From the NCBI GenBank assembly GCA_028293375.1, contig JAQGOY010000244.1, positions 3,927 through 67,926 of the forward strand: a stretch of 64,000 nucleotides of DNA. The letters are read 5' to 3'. Within the stretch, counting starts at the first letter, position 1. Each line of letters opens with the position of its first letter. The stretch is from Verrucomicrobiales bacterium (lineage in GTDB: Bacteria; Verrucomicrobiota; Verrucomicrobiia; Limisphaerales; JAQGOY01). Shown piece by piece: positions 1,495-59,445 of this stretch. A program made the translations under genes and the position numbers. Below the pieces are notes generated by a model. That model had not been told where the DNA came from. It saw nothing but the letters and a program-made list of their open reading frames with translations, and did no database searches.

Positions 1495-2279
1495 TTTTCG
1501 TGTTGCAGTTCAGCCATAATCGATTCTGAAATGCGCCCCACTTCCGGGTCGTTAAAATCCCGGGGCCTCGGCAAATTTACCGCTATTTCCTTAATGATGC
1601 GTCCAGGACGCCCACTGAAAATGACCACCCGGTCCCCTAGACACGCCGCCTCCCGAGTATCGTGCGTCACTGAAACAATCGTTTTCCCTGTGCGAGTAAA
1701 AAGTTCCTGGAGATCCCCATACAACTTTTGCCGTGTCAAGGCATCCAGCGCGGGAAACGGCTCGTCCACCAGCAAAATTTTGGGGTCTGGGGCGAGGGCT
1801 CGCGCCAATGCAACACGTTGTTTCATCCCGCCTGACAATTGATGCACGGAGGCTTTTTCGAATTGTTCCAGATGCACCATCGACAGCAACTCACGCGCAC
1901 GCTGCTTCCGTTTTTTCCAGTTGAACCGAAACTTCCAGCGCAACCCATAGGAAATGTTATCGATCACGTTCATCCAGGGAAACAAGGCGTGTTCCTGGAA
2001 CATCATCAACCGGTCGTTGTGCGGTTTGGTGACTTGCTTGCCGTCCAACAGGATCGTCCCTTCGCTGGGGCGCTCAAATCCCGCTATCATGTTCAGCAAT
2101 GTCGATTTACCGCAACCCGACGGGCCGACAAAAATCACGAACTCACCTGGGTTAATGGTGAGATTTATTTTTGCCAGGGCGCTGACCTCCTGATCATCCG
2201 ATTCAAATTGTTTGGAAACATTTTGAATCGACAATGTTCCAGGTTTGGTAAATGTCGCCGTTGTTTCGATTTGGCTCAT
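1491..2279 (-). CDS. ABC transporter ATP-binding protein, NitT/TauT type
   Basis: Walker A GPSGCGKST, ABC signature LSGGMKQRVALARAL, Walker B LLVDEP, and the H-loop THD. Translationally coupled to both neighbours. Confidence 0.9.
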   Translation of the reverse strand: MSQIETTATFTKPGTLSIQNVSKQFESDDQEVSALAKINLTINPGEFVIFVGPSGCGKSTLLNMIAGFERPSEGTILLDGKQVTKPHNDRLMMFQEHALFPWMNVIDNISYGLRWKFRFNWKKRKQRARELLSMVHLEQFEKASVHQLSGGMKQRVALARALAPDPKILLVDEPFPALDALTRQKLYGDLQELFTRTGKTIVSVTHDTREAACLGDRVVIFSGRPGRIIKEIAVNLPRPRDFNDPEVGRISESIMAELQHEK

Positions 2280-3304
2280 TTTTTCTCCAGGGAAGGCAGG
2301 CTCATTTGCTGCAATACTTCGTTCAACGCTTCCAGGGCATAGATGCCGTCGATTTCTGGCTGCTTTCTAAGGAAACCGACTTTGTGCGCGGCCTCCGCGC
2401 TTTTCTTTAACGTCTCCGGGTAAGGATCCCATGTGAACTCCACTCTCGCCATCGACTTGGTGATAACCTCTTTTGAAAGCTCTTTGCCCGTCTCCTTTTT
2501 CAATTGATCATTCAAGACAATCGCCGCCGCAGGCTTGTCATCATTGATCTTACGCGTGATTTGCACATGCGTTCGCAGCAAATTCCGGATTAACTCCGGG
2601 TGATCGGCCAAAAAGGCCTTCCTAACCACCAGTTGTGTGGTGACATAATGTCCTTCAGGCCACAGGTCCTTTTCTTCCAAAAACACTCGAGCCCCCAATT
2701 GCACCTCCAGTCGCGAAACCCATGGCTCGATCGTCCATGCCCCATCGATTTGTTTTTTCTTCATGGTCGTCAACTGGTCGGCATTCGACAGCGCGATCAA
2801 ATTCAAATTCCCTCCTTTTTCCGTCAATTTATAATGGTGCTCGGAGAACCATTCCCTGGCGGCTATGTCCTGCGTATTTCCAAGTTGGGGCGTGGCTATC
2901 GTCATTCCTCCAAAGTCCTTTTCTGAATGGATGGCCGCATCACCCCGGATGACCAGTGCCGCTCCACCGCTCGCCGCGCCCGCAATAATCACAAACTTTT
3001 CTCCCCTCGACCGGACGTATCCATTAATCGTCGGACTTGGCCCTATGAAGGTGAGGTCGATGGCATCGGTGAACAATGCTTCCACCGCAGTGGGGCCTGC
3101 ATTGAAACTGGTCCACTTGATTTGCATTTTTGTGGCATTTTCAAAAGAGCGTTTGTTCTTGGCGTAAAGTGCCTGCGCATGGGTGATATTCGGAAAAAAT
3201 CCCATTCGAATTTCGGTAAATGGCGCTGCGCTCGATGCCGGGTTGATCCAGGCAAAAAGAATAATCATTAGCGCAACAATCCTAGTTTTAACTCGGCAAC
3301 CCAT
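2276..3304 (-). CDS. ABC transporter periplasmic substrate-binding protein (NMT1/SsuA/NrtA-like)
   Basis: Start moved to the ATG at 3304 (MGCRVKTRIVALMIILFAWINPASSAAP, a signal peptide). The track ORF extends to 3499 only by running antisense across the tRNA. First gene of the three-gene importer operon. Confidence 0.8.
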   Translation of the reverse strand: MGCRVKTRIVALMIILFAWINPASSAAPFTEIRMGFFPNITHAQALYAKNKRSFENATKMQIKWTSFNAGPTAVEALFTDAIDLTFIGPSPTINGYVRSRGEKFVIIAGAASGGAALVIRGDAAIHSEKDFGGMTIATPQLGNTQDIAAREWFSEHHYKLTEKGGNLNLIALSNADQLTTMKKKQIDGAWTIEPWVSRLEVQLGARVFLEEKDLWPEGHYVTTQLVVRKAFLADHPELIRNLLRTHVQITRKINDDKPAAAIVLNDQLKKETGKELSKEVITKSMARVEFTWDPYPETLKKSAEAAHKVGFLRKQPEIDGIYALEALNEVLQQMSLPSLEKK

Positions 3305-3456
3305 ACGACAACGAACCCTGCCTACAGAATATGTCCATATGGAACGGTGGGAATAGGGGCTTCGCCTAAAGAAGGAGGGGGAACCGTGAACCTTGGGGAC
3401 GAAATTCGCAAAGTCGTTGCCAAAACGAACAGAAACAGGCAAACCTATGGTTGGTT

Positions 3457-3533
3457 CGGGACGTAGCGTAGCCTGGTAGCGCGCGTGGTTCGGGTCCACG
3501 AGGTCGTGAGTTCAATTCTCACCGTCCCGACCA
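3457..3533 (+). tRNA. tRNA-Pro (anticodon CGG), CCA encoded
   Basis: Folded by hand into a 77-nt cloverleaf: acceptor CGGGACG/CGTCCCG, D stem GCGT/GCGC, anticodon stem CGTGG/CCACG with loop TTCGGGT, T arm GTGAG-TTCAATT-CTCAC, discriminator A, then CCA. Confidence 0.9.
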
Positions 3534-3536
3534 CTT
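3524..3536 (+). repeat. Left copy of a 13-bp direct repeat GTCCCGACCACTT (tRNA-Pro 3' end; att-like)
   Basis: Identical 13-mer recurs at 4409-4421. Confidence 0.7.
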
Positions 3537-3642
3537 TTTCTGATGCCTCAGATTCAGTTTTAAAATCGTAAAACGGAAACCGGTATTGGTGGAATGGCTT
3601 GCTCCATCCAAGAATGAGCTTAAGATGATCTAAAGTGGTGAT

Positions 3643-3807
3643 ATGACGACGATCAAACACGACAAATGCAAGAACATCAAACAAGAGGTTCAACAAATCC
3701 GTAAAGCCGCGCAAAAAGTTGCGGCTTCGAAGCAGTCGGCCCGTCGCTTTTTGATTTCTACAGGCGTTTACTCAGCATCTGGACAACTGAAGCCTGCCTT
3801 CCGCTAA
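3643..3807 (+). CDS. Small 54-aa protein, candidate antitoxin/partner of the downstream ORF (below the ORF-track length cut-off)
   Basis: Hand-translated: MTTIKHDKCKNIKQEVQQIRKAAQKVAASKQSARRFLISTGVYSASGQLKPAFR. An in-frame stop lies just upstream (3631-3633). Its TAA (3805-3807) overlaps the ATG (3807-3809) of the next ORF. Confidence 0.45.
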   Translation: MTTIKHDKCKNIKQEVQQIRKAAQKVAASKQSARRFLISTGVYSASGQLKPAFR

Positions 3808-4382
3808 TGGTTTCCCGCTCCCTTGTCTTGGGCTATCATGGCTGTGACGAATCTACAGCGTTTAAAGTTGTTAACGGACACGAAGATCTAATTCCAAGCA
3901 AAAATGAATATGACTGGCTGGGTAGCGGTTTGTATTTTTGGGAGGACAGCAGCTCCCGTGCGCTAAAATGGGCTCAAGACGAGTCCAGAAAGCCGAATGG
4001 AAAGCTTAAAACGCCTGCGGTGCTCGGGGCAATTATCGATTTAGGAAACTGCCTAAACCTGATCGATGCGGACCATTTGGACTTTGTAAAGGCTGCCCAC
4101 CAGGCATATTTGGATTTCTGTCGAATTTCGGAGCTCCAACCCGCCCAGAACAAAGGAAAGGATTTGCGGGCTCGTTTTCTAGATAAGGCGGTTTTCGAAA
4201 CGCTTCACAAATTGCGCCAAGACGAAGGAGAAACGGCTTTTGAAACTGTTCGTGCTTTTTTTGTTGAAGGAGAGCCTCTCTACGAAAAATCCGGGTTGCA
4301 TTCATTAGATCACGTTCAGATCTGCGTTCGCAATTCCAACAATATAGTTGGCTACTTTCTACCGCGCCTTAAAGTCGATTAA
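3807..4382 (+). CDS. DUF3990-like protein with an H-Y-E ADP-ribosyltransferase-like motif layout (function unknown; candidate toxin)
   Basis: 191-aa ORF. N-terminal LGYHGC (H11), then DWLGSGLYFWED (Y43), SRALKWAQ, and C-terminal HVQICVRNSNNIVGYF. This layout is recalled from the uncharacterised DUF3990 family. Located in the tRNA-adjacent islet. Confidence 0.55.
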   Translation: MVSRSLVLGYHGCDESTAFKVVNGHEDLIPSKNEYDWLGSGLYFWEDSSSRALKWAQDESRKPNGKLKTPAVLGAIIDLGNCLNLIDADHLDFVKAAHQAYLDFCRISELQPAQNKGKDLRARFLDKAVFETLHKLRQDEGETAFETVRAFFVEGEPLYEKSGLHSLDHVQICVRNSNNIVGYFLPRLKVD

Positions 4383-4408
4383 ACTTAGATAGCAGTTCAG
4401 GCGTCCCT

Positions 4409-4421
4409 GTCCCGACCACTT
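4409..4421 (+). repeat. Right copy of the 13-bp direct repeat GTCCCGACCACTT (att-like)
   Basis: Exact copy of tRNA-Pro positions 3524-3536. Lies in the 45-bp gap between convergent stop codons at 4382 and 4428. Confidence 0.7.
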
Positions 4422-4427
4422 CATTTC

Positions 4428-6689
4428 TCAATCGACGTTGATCGTGTTGTAGATTTCCTGACTAATATCGGTTTGGTCTGCTGCTTTCATTTGATATTTA
4501 ATCTTCATCTGCATCACCGGCTGCAACTTTTCCATCGTCAGGACCACCGTTTTGCCATCTTCCTTCAGCTGAACCGACTTGACTTCCAGTTTATCGGTCC
4601 CCTTTTTAGCCGGGTTCTCCACGGAATAATTGTCTGAACCGTAAGTGCTGGTCCAATGATAGTTCCATTGCTCTACCGCATAATTCCCCGCATCCTGCGC
4701 CTGCGTTTTATCCAGGGAATCGGAGAAAACGATTGTGATGGCATTGCCTTTCACGTGAAGTTCTATCGGCATATACGTCGGTTTACCTGTATAACGAACA
4801 CGTTGCAACGCGCCATCGCGCACCGCGCTGGTTTGCCAGCCTTTCATTCCGCAGACATATAGCTGCCCATCAGCCGAACTGAATCGGCCTCTCATCATGC
4901 CGCTGCCAAATTTTAACGGAAATTGGACAACCCCTCCCTGTGCCACCCCTCCTGCAATCTCAGGCATCACAGCGAACAACGTGCCTTTCCCATACGAAAG
5001 ATGAAGCATATGATTTTTCAATGGCCCCCATTTATTTCCAGTCACCCACACCTGGCTGCCACTCGAATTGTCCGCGTTCATCGGTATCCAGCAGAGGGGC
5101 GGGTCATAAGTAGTCGGTGTTTTTCTGATCAACGGATGCGAGAGGTTTGTCTGCCTGGGGTCGCCACCGTAGCCATAGAATCCGCCTTGTTTGATCCAAT
5201 TGATGCGGCAAGCTGGCGTCCAGTGGCCCTGATTATCTGCGGTTGTAATCTGATCTTCCGGCCCTATCCCCATTCCATTCGCCGCCCTCATGCCGGTCGC
5301 GAAAATATTCGCATATTTGCCGTCCGCAGAAACCTGCACAAGTGAACCATGATATGGCAGATCCGGGTCCACCATGTTCCCATCGGTCACGAAATAGAAA
5401 TTCGTTTTACTGTCGGTTTGTAAGTCAAAGGAATAAGCGTGGTAGGTGGGATACACATCCACGTGACTATTGAAGGATTCATAATAATCTGCTTCGCCGT
5501 CATTGTTTACATCAACCAATTTCGTGATTCGATCCTTTCCCAGCACGTAAATCTGGTCGTTGACAATTTTCAGCCCCAAAGTTTCGTAGAGTCCGGTGGC
5601 GAATCTTTTCCAGCTCAACATTCGTAGTGATCGGTCGATCCCGGAAACAACCCAGACTTCTCCGCTCATGGTTGATATCGCCGCACTCCCATCCTTAAAG
5701 AAATCCACCGCCGTCAGCCTCATCCACGAATCAAATGGATTGCTTTCAGGAATGGTCAAGGTATCGACCTGGAATGCCCCGGGCTCGGTCCCGAGTTTTC
5801 CGCGGGTGGAAACGGTAGTCCACCGGGCAGCCCCCCCCTTAGTCATTTCCAGTGGATCTTCAAAGCCCAACTCAGCTTCGGACGGTTTATCGCTTTCACC
5901 GATTGAAACTCGAAAGATACTTTCTTCGCTTTTTTCAAGATGAAGGATCACTTTGCCTTCCTGTTGAAGCAGTAGTCCCTGCCCTTTCTTGAATGCCACG
6001 TGCAACAGGTTAACTGCTCCCGCGTTATCTGTGACCCGTGCTGTGTTCCCAATCAAATCCACTTTCGCGCCGGAAATCAGATTGATATTGATCGGCTCAG
6101 AAATTCTAACCACATGAAAATCGCGAAAAAATGTCGAGTCAGGACTCATCGAAGCGGTTTCAACCACCCTGCTTTTCCCCACTCGCCACTGGATGGCCGT
6201 TCGCTCCTCGAAGCGGTACATTCCTTCGTAATGAAATGTCTCCGAGGTATTCGCATCAAACGGCTCGAAACTCGTCGAAGAAAAGGAACACCCGGCCTGA
6301 GGAGGTATAAGAAAGATTTTATTGGTACCAGCCCATGCAGGACCGCTTCCTTGTGGCGACTTCATGATGCTGGTGCTCGAAATATTAATAAAATTTCCTT
6401 TCCACGCTGCTCGATAAATCAAACGTTCGGTATCGAAACAAGCCCCACCGTTAGTTCCCAGCTTAACCGCCAATCCCTTAAGAACATAATTTGTATTAGG
6501 TCCCGATAGCGCTTTGTTCGACCTTCCAAGATTGACCGTAAAAAATTGAAACCCTCCGGATACCGGAGCCTGTCTGGTCTCCGATGCTCTAACTACAGCG
6601 TTGGTAACGCTTTGGCCCTGCGCAGCCCCCACCCCTGTCAAGAAAGCGAGGAAGGAAATCAGAAAGCGTCGAAAGAATAGGTCGGCCAT
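4428..6689 (-). CDS. Secreted beta-propeller protein, PVC-type 'membrane-bound dehydrogenase domain'-like
   Basis: 753 aa with signal peptide MADLFFRRFLISFLAFLTGVGAAQG. The central region (DVNNDGEADYYESF...ADNQGHWTPACRINWIKQGGFYGYG) resembles the propeller segment of the 1415-aa protein at 49950-54197. Confidence 0.7.
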   Translation of the reverse strand: MADLFFRRFLISFLAFLTGVGAAQGQSVTNAVVRASETRQAPVSGGFQFFTVNLGRSNKALSGPNTNYVLKGLAVKLGTNGGACFDTERLIYRAAWKGNFINISSTSIMKSPQGSGPAWAGTNKIFLIPPQAGCSFSSTSFEPFDANTSETFHYEGMYRFEERTAIQWRVGKSRVVETASMSPDSTFFRDFHVVRISEPININLISGAKVDLIGNTARVTDNAGAVNLLHVAFKKGQGLLLQQEGKVILHLEKSEESIFRVSIGESDKPSEAELGFEDPLEMTKGGAARWTTVSTRGKLGTEPGAFQVDTLTIPESNPFDSWMRLTAVDFFKDGSAAISTMSGEVWVVSGIDRSLRMLSWKRFATGLYETLGLKIVNDQIYVLGKDRITKLVDVNNDGEADYYESFNSHVDVYPTYHAYSFDLQTDSKTNFYFVTDGNMVDPDLPYHGSLVQVSADGKYANIFATGMRAANGMGIGPEDQITTADNQGHWTPACRINWIKQGGFYGYGGDPRQTNLSHPLIRKTPTTYDPPLCWIPMNADNSSGSQVWVTGNKWGPLKNHMLHLSYGKGTLFAVMPEIAGGVAQGGVVQFPLKFGSGMMRGRFSSADGQLYVCGMKGWQTSAVRDGALQRVRYTGKPTYMPIELHVKGNAITIVFSDSLDKTQAQDAGNYAVEQWNYHWTSTYGSDNYSVENPAKKGTDKLEVKSVQLKEDGKTVVLTMEKLQPVMQMKIKYQMKAADQTDISQEIYNTINVD

Positions 6690-6783: not shown

Positions 6784-7020
6784 TTACTCTTCCCCATCGT
6801 TCCCAATGGAGTCAGAGGGACAGCCTATCCTGTCCTCTTCGGCGGCTCGACACTCCTCTGAAGTTACTGGTTGTCGAAATACCGCCGTTTGACCCAGTTC
6901 CTCATCCCTTCGGAAAACATCAGGCGATGAAGTTCTGCACATATCGCAGTCGATACACGTCGAGTCTATGTAATATTTACCGGGGACATTTGATTTTAGT
7001 CTTAGATGGAGTTCTGCCAT
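6784..7020 (-). CDS. Small single-cluster [3Fe/4Fe-4S] ferredoxin
   Basis: Start set at the ATG at 7020 (MAELHLRLKSNVPGKYYIDSTCIDCDMCRTSSPDVF...CPSDSI). Carries the CxxCxxC...CP cluster motif. The track's longer N-terminus overlaps the divergent lysR start. Confidence 0.75.
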   Translation of the reverse strand: MAELHLRLKSNVPGKYYIDSTCIDCDMCRTSSPDVFRRDEELGQTAVFRQPVTSEECRAAEEDRIGCPSDSIGNDGEE

Positions 7021-7076
7021 GGCCCAAGAATAGATCGTTTTGTTCTTTGACCAAAATTCATTAGTTGCATACATTA

Positions 7077-8042
7077 ATGCATAAAATGCATCAGTATTTG
7101 AACACGTTGCCTTTCGATTTATACGAGCTGGCTCTTTTTCATCTGGTCGCAAAAAAGGGAAGTTTTACTCATGCCGCAACAGAAGCAGGTTTGACCCAGA
7201 GCGCGATCACCCGCCAAATCCAATCCATGGAGCAAAGCCTCGGGCTGCCTTTGTTTCAGAGAACCACCCGAAAGGTTAAGCTCACGCCAGCCGGAGAGTT
7301 TCTTTATCAAGACTCTGGAAGACTCATCGGCGATGTGGAACGAGTGTTGCGAAATCTCCGGGAAAATTTTGTAGATGCTCCCAAACAGATCAGGCTTGGG
7401 CTATCAAGAACGATTGGTCTTGCCTATCTGCCCGGCTTTCTTCATGCAAACCTGCGACGCTCCCCTGCCGTCACGGTTCAAGTTTCTTGTCAGGCGAGTC
7501 ACGAAATTCTATCTGGTTTGGAATCCGACGCCCTGGATATAGGCATTCTCAGCGCTTCTCATTCATTGCCAAAAACGTTGCGTGTCACTCACCAGTTCGA
7601 AGACGCTTTCACCCTGATTGCTTCCTCTATAAAGGCTGAAGAAGCTCTGGCCATAAAAAGTAAAGGTCAGCTTGTTCTCTGGCTGCGAAAACAAGAATGG
7701 CTCGCTCTTGATCCATCCACCGAAACCGGAGGCAGGTTGGTGACGTGGATGAAGAAAAAACAAATTCAAGTTTCGCCAATGATGGAACTGGATAATTACG
7801 ATTGGCTTATCAACCTCGTCTCCCTCGGCATGGGAATGAGTTTCGTCCCCATTCGCGCGCTGGCGCTTTATAATCAAAAAAAATCTATTCGCCGCATCCC
7901 TCTTCCCTTTCGCTTCAGCAGAGATTTGACAGTCGTGATGCGGAAAAATCGGAGCATGCCTGCTCATCTCAGCCATTTTGTTTCCAACATTCTGTTCAGG
8001 CCAAAAAAGATGCCTGCGAAGCAGGCTGCAAAACGTGGATAA
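7077..8042 (+). CDS. LysR-family transcriptional regulator
   Basis: N-terminal wHTH (LALFHLVAKKGSFTHAATEAGLTQSAITRQIQSMEQSLGLPLFQRTTRKVKLTPAG) plus a substrate-binding domain. The start is ambiguous (TTG 7065, ATG 7077 or ATG 7086). Divergent from the ferredoxin gene. Confidence 0.9.
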   Translation: MHKMHQYLNTLPFDLYELALFHLVAKKGSFTHAATEAGLTQSAITRQIQSMEQSLGLPLFQRTTRKVKLTPAGEFLYQDSGRLIGDVERVLRNLRENFVDAPKQIRLGLSRTIGLAYLPGFLHANLRRSPAVTVQVSCQASHEILSGLESDALDIGILSASHSLPKTLRVTHQFEDAFTLIASSIKAEEALAIKSKGQLVLWLRKQEWLALDPSTETGGRLVTWMKKKQIQVSPMMELDNYDWLINLVSLGMGMSFVPIRALALYNQKKSIRRIPLPFRFSRDLTVVMRKNRSMPAHLSHFVSNILFRPKKMPAKQAAKRG

Positions 8043-59060: not shown

Positions 59061-59097
59061 CTCTGTGAACTCCCTTTCCTCCCTGTAAAAATTCCCC
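59061..59097 (+). repeat. Copy 1 of a perfect 37-bp direct repeat CTCTGTGAACTCCCTTTCCTCCCTGTAAAAATTCCCC
   Basis: Identical 37-mer recurs at 59409-59445. Flanking bases differ on both sides. Confidence 0.95.
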
Positions 59098-59408: not shown

Positions 59409-59445
59409 CTCTGTGAACTCCCTTTCCTCCCTGTAAAAATTCCCC
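59409..59445 (+). repeat. Copy 2 of the perfect 37-bp direct repeat
   Basis: Identical to 59061-59097. Begins 348 bp downstream of copy 1 and lies 19 nt from the stop of the hydroxylase gene. Confidence 0.95.

Follow-up and report, generated by a model that had tools for sequence, protein, structure and literature searches.

Results

The tRNA-Pro locus and its islet

The analysis was centered on a 64,000-nt stretch of DNA from a Verrucomicrobiales bacterium (GenBank assembly GCA_028293375.1, contig JAQGOY010000244.1, positions 3,927 to 67,926 of the forward strand), hereafter referred to as the window, and in particular on an islet of about 0.9 kb that lies directly downstream of a tRNA-Pro(CGG) gene. 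The islet carries two small genes and is bracketed by two exact copies of a 13-mer, GTCCCGACCACTT, derived from the 3' end of the tRNA. An earlier note on this DNA had placed these copies at 3524-3536 and 4409-4421, with the second copy falling between convergent stop codons at 4382 and 4428, and both observations were confirmed. The locus comprises the following features:

3457..3533, + strand: tRNA-Pro(CGG) gene with encoded CCA, the insertion target, left intact (ARAGORN; Rfam RF00005, 62.8 bits)
3524..3536, + strand: left copy of the direct repeat, attL-like core (6 nt of acceptor stem, discriminator, CCA and 3 trailer nt)
3537..3642, + strand: left inner non-coding arm, its last ~50 nt conserved among cassette copies
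3643..3807, + strand: 54-amino acid (aa) open reading frame (ORF), putative antitoxin or partner, which precedes the toxin homolog in related loci
3807..4382, + strand: 191-aa ORF, putative CmdT-like ADP-ribosyltransferase (PADLOC, AlphaFold2 model, Foldseek, conserved residues)
4383..4408, + strand: short 3' tail of the islet, its first ~15 nt alignable with the closest related cassette (L086)
4409..4421, + strand: right copy of the direct repeat, attR-like, an orphan tRNA 3' end separated by 6 nt from the convergent gene's stop codon
4428..6689, - strand: convergent DUF6797/glucose-sorbosone-dehydrogenase-like gene (753 aa; Pfam), right flank, outside the islet

The tRNA-Pro(CGG) gene is the single tRNA gene of the window, and the only match to any RNA family in a scan with Rfam. 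The second copy of the 13-mer sits inside a 45-nt gap delimited by the stop codons of the 191-aa ORF (4380-4382) and of the convergent gene (4428-4430), and no third copy was found on either strand of the 64 kb, even with up to 2 mismatches allowed. Without gaps, the repeat can be extended to 28 nt at 79% identity (3509-3536 / 4394-4421), and a 2-nt gap lets it grow in the 3' direction to about 18-20 nt. The 28-nt extension was given less weight, since its AGTTCA part can be aligned with the tail of the L086 cassette as well; as judged from the aligned sequences, this portion may be of non-tRNA origin.

The earlier note had also described the bracketed DNA as a two-gene cassette lacking an integrase, in agreement with our analysis: the islet contains two ORFs only, which overlap by 1 nt (stop/start), and neither of them encodes a recombinase. 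The left arm presents a promoter-like arrangement of TTGCTC (3599-3604) and TAAGAT (3621-3626) separated by a 16-nt spacer, followed by a GGTGAT ribosome-binding site. Since a generic sigma-70 scan of the islet reported no site at its thresholds, this promoter remains a putative one. Five cassette loci can be aligned from ~50-60 nt ahead of the partner gene start codon (ATG) through to the toxin stop codon. The GC content of the islet is 46.1%, versus 50-51% in its flanks.

No terminal inverted repeats were detected at the ends of the islet. An insertion sequence, a miniature inverted-repeat transposable element or another transposon was rejected on this basis, and on the length and variability of the direct repeats, which span 12-118 nt among family members. 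An integron cassette was set aside without a dedicated test, given that variable repeats of neighboring gene ends are unlike what would be expected of attC sites.

An empty site in a sister strain

The 753-aa protein encoded in the right flank has a 99% identical partial homolog (P0121) in a second Verrucomicrobiales metagenome-assembled genome (MAG). The corresponding 2.8-kb contig (GCA_028293475.1; L168) harbors the same convergent gene, the tRNA-Pro(CGG) gene and the gene for the NMT1-type transporter, with 283 nt between the two protein-coding genes and no cassette. Its flanks are 97.7-99% identical to those of the window (1238 of 1251 positions matching on the left and 1513 of 1548 on the right), the tRNA gene is 100% identical, and the islet is the sole indel. 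The first 12 nt of the left repeat copy (GTCCCGACCACT) are present once in L168, at the end of the tRNA gene, and the right repeat copy is absent; the convergent gene's stop codon is reached 18 nt past the CCA. The empty site that the earlier note had proposed to look for in relatives, with the tRNA followed directly by the sequence found here after position 4421, was hence located in a near-identical genome, where the two are almost directly joined. Furthermore, the 90%-identity cluster of the toxin has a single member, with no copy at 90% identity or above recorded in the protein collection from other assemblies, including the sister MAG. On the basis of the empty site and of this single-member cluster, the islet constitutes a presence/absence polymorphism of ~875-885 bp whose ends coincide with the repeat. 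The comparison shows a cassette inserted directly 3' of tRNA-Pro(CGG), with the 3' end of the tRNA duplicated, the tRNA itself intact and no recombinase of its own.

The empty-site junction reads CACC-GTCCCGACCACT-CCC-TTTTC-CACT-ATTT-TCAATCG. The window presents CACC-GTCCCGACCACT-T-TTTC-TGATGCC at its attL junction and CCCT-GTCCCGACCACT-TCA-TTTC-TCAATCG at attR. The trailer of L168 (read on the reverse complement) is itself tandem-like, CACT-CCC-TTTTC / CACT-A-TTTTC, with halves that resemble the attL and attR trailers; this duplication could be an excision footprint.

The empty site was found via the flanking protein, and a search for it by exact pattern in metagenome contigs returned nothing. 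When contigs were scanned with the 753-aa protein, the relatives found presented at most 52% identity, and the eight loci that were examined (seven of them among the best-matching) contained no tRNA gene, indicating a lack of synteny. The outgroups P0122 and P0134 were likewise not syntenic with the locus.

On the left side of the locus, the ORF call for the NMT1-type solute-binding protein (2276-3499, - strand) starts at a GTG codon and extends across the tRNA-Pro gene. Homology to NMT1_2 begins at residue 91 of this protein and a signal-peptide-like segment, MGCRVKTRIVALMIILFAW, at about residue 66, which places its real start further downstream.

Repeat statistics

The earlier note had put the probability of a chance recurrence of the 13-mer within 1 kb at about 1e-5. 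This estimate proved too optimistic: with ~28 candidate 13-mers in the 3' part of the tRNA, the probability rises to ~4.5e-4. Direct repeats of at least 13 nt with both copies within 1.5 kb number four in the window, compared with 1.5 expected, and a flanking repeat of equal blast score surrounds 1.2% of arbitrary 740-nt segments of related DNA. The repeat by itself is therefore suggestive but insufficient as evidence of insertion, and the boundaries of the insertion were accepted as real because of the empty site and of their recurrence in relatives.

Two more exact direct repeats of 13 nt, at 236/1096 and 56164/56680 and likewise within 1.5 kb, served to calibrate these statistics; given the ~1.5 expected, they are probably due to chance. 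The longest short-range direct repeat of the window is an exact 37-nt repeat, CTCTGTGAACTCCCTTTCCTCCCTGTAAAAATTCCCC, located at 59061-59097 and 59409-59445 around 311 nt of apparently non-coding DNA. This pair could mark another small insertion or repeated element.

The islet proteins

The 191-aa protein is a member of a large and well-conserved family with at least 867 homologs; the 120 matches listed present 62-84% identity to it. Neither of the islet proteins matched Pfam or NCBIfam, and in two RefSeq plasmid records that were inspected both family proteins are labelled 'hypothetical protein'. The 191-aa protein matched the PADLOC model PD-T4-9_A (E=5.9e-9, residues 4-61). The PD-T4-9 system was later renamed CmdTAC, a toxin-antitoxin-chaperone system for phage defence (PMC11618068, PMC9519451). 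The best Foldseek matches of the AlphaFold2 model of the 191-aa protein (predicted local distance difference test, pLDDT, 79) were the catalytic domain of exotoxin A (probability 1.00) and the ADP-ribosyltransferase (ART) domains of PARP1/15, and the sequence profile of the protein also yielded a weak match to exotoxin A over residues 7-74. To these features is added an H-Y-[E/D/Q] set of residues: in an alignment of 29 homologs, Y43, E154 and Q171 are invariant and H11 nearly so, with Y43 corresponding to the catalytic Y41 of CmdT. The predicted fold and these residues point to a probable CmdT-like, diphtheria-toxin-type ADP-ribosyltransferase. Comparison with its L086 counterpart revealed 93 synonymous and 38 non-synonymous differences, and the toxin gene is therefore under purifying selection.

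The 54-aa partner did not match any PADLOC family either. A small homologous ORF lies directly before the toxin homolog in 78 of 86 related loci; of the remaining eight, five are on contigs that end before the partner position, and for three (L121, L131 and L164) none was detected despite the presence of upstream DNA. Two small, co-directional and overlapping genes, one of them with a predicted ART fold, correspond to the gene layout of a type II toxin-antitoxin (TA) system.

The organization of the pair departs from that of CmdTAC in several respects. It consists of two genes with the small partner upstream, whereas the CmdTAC order is toxin-antitoxin-chaperone; it lacks a SecB-like chaperone, with no gene between the toxin and the convergent DUF6797 gene; the partner has no match to a known antitoxin family; and the profile match covers only the N-terminal ~58 residues of the 191-aa protein.

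Homologs at ~44% identity are found on 70 plasmids, with a small ORF directly upstream in the two records inspected. On conjugative Pseudomonas syringae plasmids the pair has a parA gene ~1.3 kb away; a homolog also resides on an 8.5-kb Acinetobacter plasmid. In addition, homologs are present on 87 IMG/VR contigs.

Recurrence of the cassette family

The neighborhoods of the cassette are unrelated in every locus examined. In L142 the cassette follows a tRNA-Val(TAC) gene, and an exact 12-nt repeat of the tRNA 3' end, GTAGTGCCCACC, starts 12 nt past the toxin stop codon; its score was reached by 0 of 2000 shuffles. The closest cassette (L086, 84% aa identity) is located 72 nt after a tRNA-Pro(GGG) gene. 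A scan for flanking direct repeats of at least 30 bits, covering 600 nt upstream and 300 nt downstream of the cassette, identified them in 8 of 68 assessable loci, versus 0 of 746 pseudo-windows placed in related DNA as a control.

Six loci (L118, L157, L094, L137, L155 and L130) present repeats of 55-118 nt. The 3' end of gcvP is duplicated in L155 (109 nt) and L153 (75 nt), that of ahcY in L130 (89 nt) and that of a solute-binding-protein gene in L137 (55 nt), while in L094 the duplication (105 nt) corresponds to an internal fragment of a xylose-isomerase-like gene. The status of the L118 repeat as a target duplication is uncertain, because it is non-coding. The cassette family is thus repeatedly bracketed by duplications of the adjoining gene end. 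The orphan copies keep both frame and stop codon, and differ from the gene-attached copies by 29 synonymous and 14 non-synonymous changes (P=0.0016 versus a decaying duplicate, 9e-8 versus neutrality). Being mostly synonymous, these differences make the copies look like orthologous gene ends from different genomes, as if one of the two repeat copies had arrived with the cassette.

In the six tightest repeat-flanked copies the left inner arm measures 72-123 nt and the right one 4-34 nt; the fit is less tight in four others. The short inner flanks of the repeat-flanked copies showed no apparent pseudogene debris, and neither an integrase nor a recognisable part of any recombinase was found in the Pfam-annotated neighborhoods of L080-L085.

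Some of these loci present additional features. In L155 and L153 the gcvP genes share 93.6% nucleotide identity and the cassettes that follow them 84.5%; the sequences past the right-hand repeat are unrelated, and L153 has ~890 extra nt between the toxin gene and the repeat. DNA downstream of gcvP is thus a possible hotspot. In L082 the cassette lies among other TA pairs, consisting of a Fic gene with a MazE-like gene and a PIN gene with a small upstream gene (913-1535 and 6847-7478), which suggests a local build-up of addiction modules. L084 contains a palindrome-rich repeat resembling repetitive extragenic palindromic (REP) elements (…ATGGAGTGCGGCGACATGTCGCCGCTTT…GCGGACATGTCCGCGCACTCCAAA…) on both sides of the cassette, at 5190-5328 and 6850-6987. 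REP-like elements were excluded from the set of target duplications because they mimic them.

Proposed mechanism of mobility

On balance, we favor a model in which positions 3537-4421 constitute a discrete, non-autonomous cassette of ~0.9 kb, composed of a promoter, a small partner gene and a CmdT-like ADP-ribosyltransferase toxin gene, that probably moves together with a copy of its previous target, preferably by means of host recombination. The cassette would carry a short copy of that target, in this case a sequence resembling the tRNA-Pro 3' end, GTCCCGACCACTT, with a TTTC trailer. Recombination between the flanking repeats would generate an intermediate, probably a circle or a tandem, and in the case of a circle the predicted junction would read …CAGGCGTCCCT-GTCCCGACCACTT-TTTCTGATGCC…. 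In a new genome, the carried copy would recombine with the homologous chromosomal sequence, regenerating the direct repeat, and the repeats would then permit excision or amplification of the cassette. The enzymes involved would act in trans. Short-homology or homology-facilitated recombination by the host is the favored route, because of the diversity of targets across the family, the tight boundaries of the unit and the unclean junction. After insertion, the pair would probably maintain itself by addiction or abortive infection; if it acts in the manner of CmdT, the toxin would modify RNA by ADP-ribosylation and be neutralised by the small protein.

A number of results weigh against this model or limit its reach. 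The repeat at the islet spans 12-13 nt (~18-20 nt if gapped), a short length for recombination by RecA but a typical one for the core site of an integrase at the very 3' end of a tRNA. An 8-9-nt indel separates the attR trailer (TCATTTC) from that of the empty site (CCCTTTTCCACTATTT), and the CCC (3 nt) is missing from attL. The junction is unclean under any simple model, and its readings as a conservative crossover or as an insert joined through microhomology each need two or three small extra changes; since the strains are 1-2% divergent, and most so between genes, neither reading is preferred. Since the more distant relatives are not syntenic, the indel is unpolarised, and the empty allele could instead be the product of excision or deletion. 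Within the family, ~85% of the copies present no flanking repeat, and the degenerate tRNA-end repeat of L086 lacks significance (its score is reached in 646 of 2000 shuffles). The long repeat of L084 was discarded as a target duplication because it is a multi-copy REP-like palindromic element, and the flanking repeats of L080 and L082 (79 and 88 nt), which were not read, are probably REP-like too. Searches for the attP junction or a circular form in viral contigs returned no match. The search for XerD- or Hin-like ORFs in the 64 kb, also without a match, was heuristic and relied on approximate queries, and thus represents a weak negative. Lastly, it is from homology and gene organization that we infer a TA-like or abortive-infection module.

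The strongest competing explanation, which we nonetheless deem rather unlikely, is a cis-mobilizable element (CIME). In this scenario, an integrase-bearing island or prophage at the 3' end of tRNA-Pro(CGG) would have decayed to attL, attR and the two-gene module, or the tyrosine integrase of a related element would have acted in trans. The CIME concept is established (PMC5704250), and tRNA-Pro(CGG) is a documented integrase target, that of phage 16-3 (as cited in PMC2853133). The repeat corresponds to the extreme 3' end of the tRNA including CCA, a classical integrase target, and its short core favors an integrase for this particular copy. The same geometry is observed at tRNA-Val in L142, the closest relative in L086 is associated with another tRNA-Pro gene, and distant homologs reside on (pro)viral contigs and plasmids. 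On the other hand, neither this locus nor the other repeat-flanked copies contain an integrase, an integrase fragment or island debris, the boundaries are tight and recurrent, and a conservative crossover would have left a cleaner junction. No recombinase was detected by the heuristic search of the 64 kb. An integrase-bearing parent island would share an attP of the form …GTCCCT-GTCCCGACCACTT-TTTCTGATG…, and no integrative and conjugative element (ICE) or integrative and mobilizable element (IME) with the same attachment-site specificity was identified in the neighborhoods of relatives. The diversity of targets, which includes the ends of protein-coding genes with 55-118-nt duplications, would require many parent islands to have all decayed to the same unit. 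A single tRNA-specific integrase is insufficient to explain the family, because gcvP, ahcY, solute-binding-protein and xylose-isomerase-like targets are also duplicated.

These results bear on the two interpretations put forward in the earlier note. The proposal that the repeat is an attL/attR scar of site-specific integration stands insofar as the repeat marks the boundaries of the insert, as evidenced by the empty site; its integrase-mediated component is not borne out, given the absence of a recombinase, the unclean junction and the use of non-tRNA targets. Between the decayed island and the cargo mobilised in trans that were offered as alternatives, the latter provides the better fit, with the same promoter and two-gene unit, tight boundaries and no pseudogene debris.

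A one-sided homologous import appears considerably less probable still. Under this explanation, a linear donor carrying tRNA-Pro, the cassette and a copy of the tRNA end would have recombined within the tRNA, with the right joint formed at a 4-nt microhomology, CACT, so that the repeat would have been imported ready-made. The empty site reads CCACT-CCC-TTTTC-CACT-ATTTTCAATCG, and an 875-bp insert (3542-4416) ending in GTCCCGAC can be read between TTTTC and the second CACT. Moreover, the left trailer TTTCTG is common to the tRNA-Pro trailer of L086 and is not found in the empty site, which suggests that it arrived with the cassette. Yet three small indels are still needed to obtain the observed attR, the origin of the first tRNA-end duplication is left unexplained, and the scenario amounts to a variant of the favored explanation rather than an independent one.

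Finally, a chance repeat beside an ordinary, vertically inherited two-gene operon is barely credible, for although the frequency of 13-nt direct repeats in the window and of equally flanked arbitrary segments speaks for it, the repeat coincides with both ends of the sister-strain indel, and this explanation is effectively refuted by the empty site and further opposed by the low probability of recurrence near the tRNA, the independent replicate at tRNA-Val and the enrichment of flanking repeats in the family.

Discussion

The cassette model favored here, in which a small unit moves with a copy of its previous target, finds its closest parallel in restriction-modification (RM) systems. Insertion of RM gene complexes with long target duplication was reportedly described by Nobusato et al. 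in 2000. As set out in Furuta, Abe & Kobayashi 2010 (PMC2853133), RM gene complexes insert with long target duplications of variable length and without mobility genes, often at gene 3' ends, with empty sites in relatives. The islet is likewise a small addiction-type unit (0.9 kb and two genes, below 20 kb) without a mobility gene and with a direct target duplication, a single copy of which is found at the empty site in a related genome. In the cassette family, the duplication also differs in length and sequence between sites and frequently takes in the 3' end of an adjacent gene. Flanking repeats are significantly more common around the cassettes than in controls and, according to PMC2853133, around RM systems than around average genes. 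Three differences can be outlined. The cargo is a TA-like ART pair and not an RM system, and the 12-13-nt duplication of the islet (~18-20 nt when gapped) falls below the 30-bp criterion, which the repeats of L118, L157, L094, L137, L155 and L130 exceed. In addition, the mainly synonymous differences between the repeats of cassette relatives suggest a copy from another genome, a feature not encountered for the RM cases in the parts of PMC2853133 consulted.

Like CIMEs (PMC5704250), the islet is non-autonomous, lacks an integrase and ends in direct repeats that take in the 3' end of a target gene. It differs from them in that no parent ICE or IME sharing its att site is known, in the lack of decay debris and of accretion with another element, and in the association of its cassette family with many unrelated targets. 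With elements targeted to tRNA genes by tyrosine integrases, such as rhizobiophage 16-3 and P4-like islands, the islet shares the use of a preserved tRNA 3' end and the distal tRNA-end repeat, but it has no integrase, spans ~0.9 kb as opposed to 10-100 kb, and presents an unclean junction and an identity block of 13 nt, where such blocks usually extend from the anticodon loop or T-loop as far as the 3' end. Phage 21 and e14 offer a further point of comparison: these elements, tens of kb in length, integrate into icd with their own integrase and supply an alternative, synonymously diverged gene 3' end, which results in a duplicated gene end.

Each of the ingredients of this system is known, including tRNA-end repeats, att-flanked elements without an integrase, target duplication at addiction modules and CmdT-type ART toxins. 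What appears to be new is a CmdT-like module of two genes, in which a small partner lies upstream and the chaperone is lacking, the recurrent link of this module to duplicated gene ends, and the synonymous-difference signature of the duplicates. A literature search for TA cassettes with target duplications returned nothing that seemed directly equivalent among the titles and abstracts listed. Although TA and defence cassettes are scattered in chromosomes, the movement of a bare two-gene unit has rarely been documented. The availability of an occupied and an empty allele in near-identical strains, together with the statistically strong association of the family with duplicated gene ends of apparent cross-genome origin, makes the idea of insertion with target duplication testable for TA modules. 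The analysis also provides a probable function, that of a CmdT-like RNA ADP-ribosyltransferase with a new small partner, for a large family lacking a Pfam or NCBIfam model.

In its broadest form, which we advance tentatively and hold to be possible more than probable, the cassette would be a minimal selfish element of ~0.8-0.9 kb without a recombinase, spreading in the Verrucomicrobiota and related phyla by means of a short carried 3' end of a conserved gene of the previous host (tRNA, gcvP, ahcY and others) and of host recombination at the orthologous site, thereby creating the target duplication. A virus-like life cycle has been hypothesised for RM systems (PMC2853133). If the cassette were indeed such a selfish element, it would represent the TA counterpart of that life cycle, proposed and never demonstrated for RM systems, and would provide one mechanism for the long-noted and unexplained scatter of TA loci.

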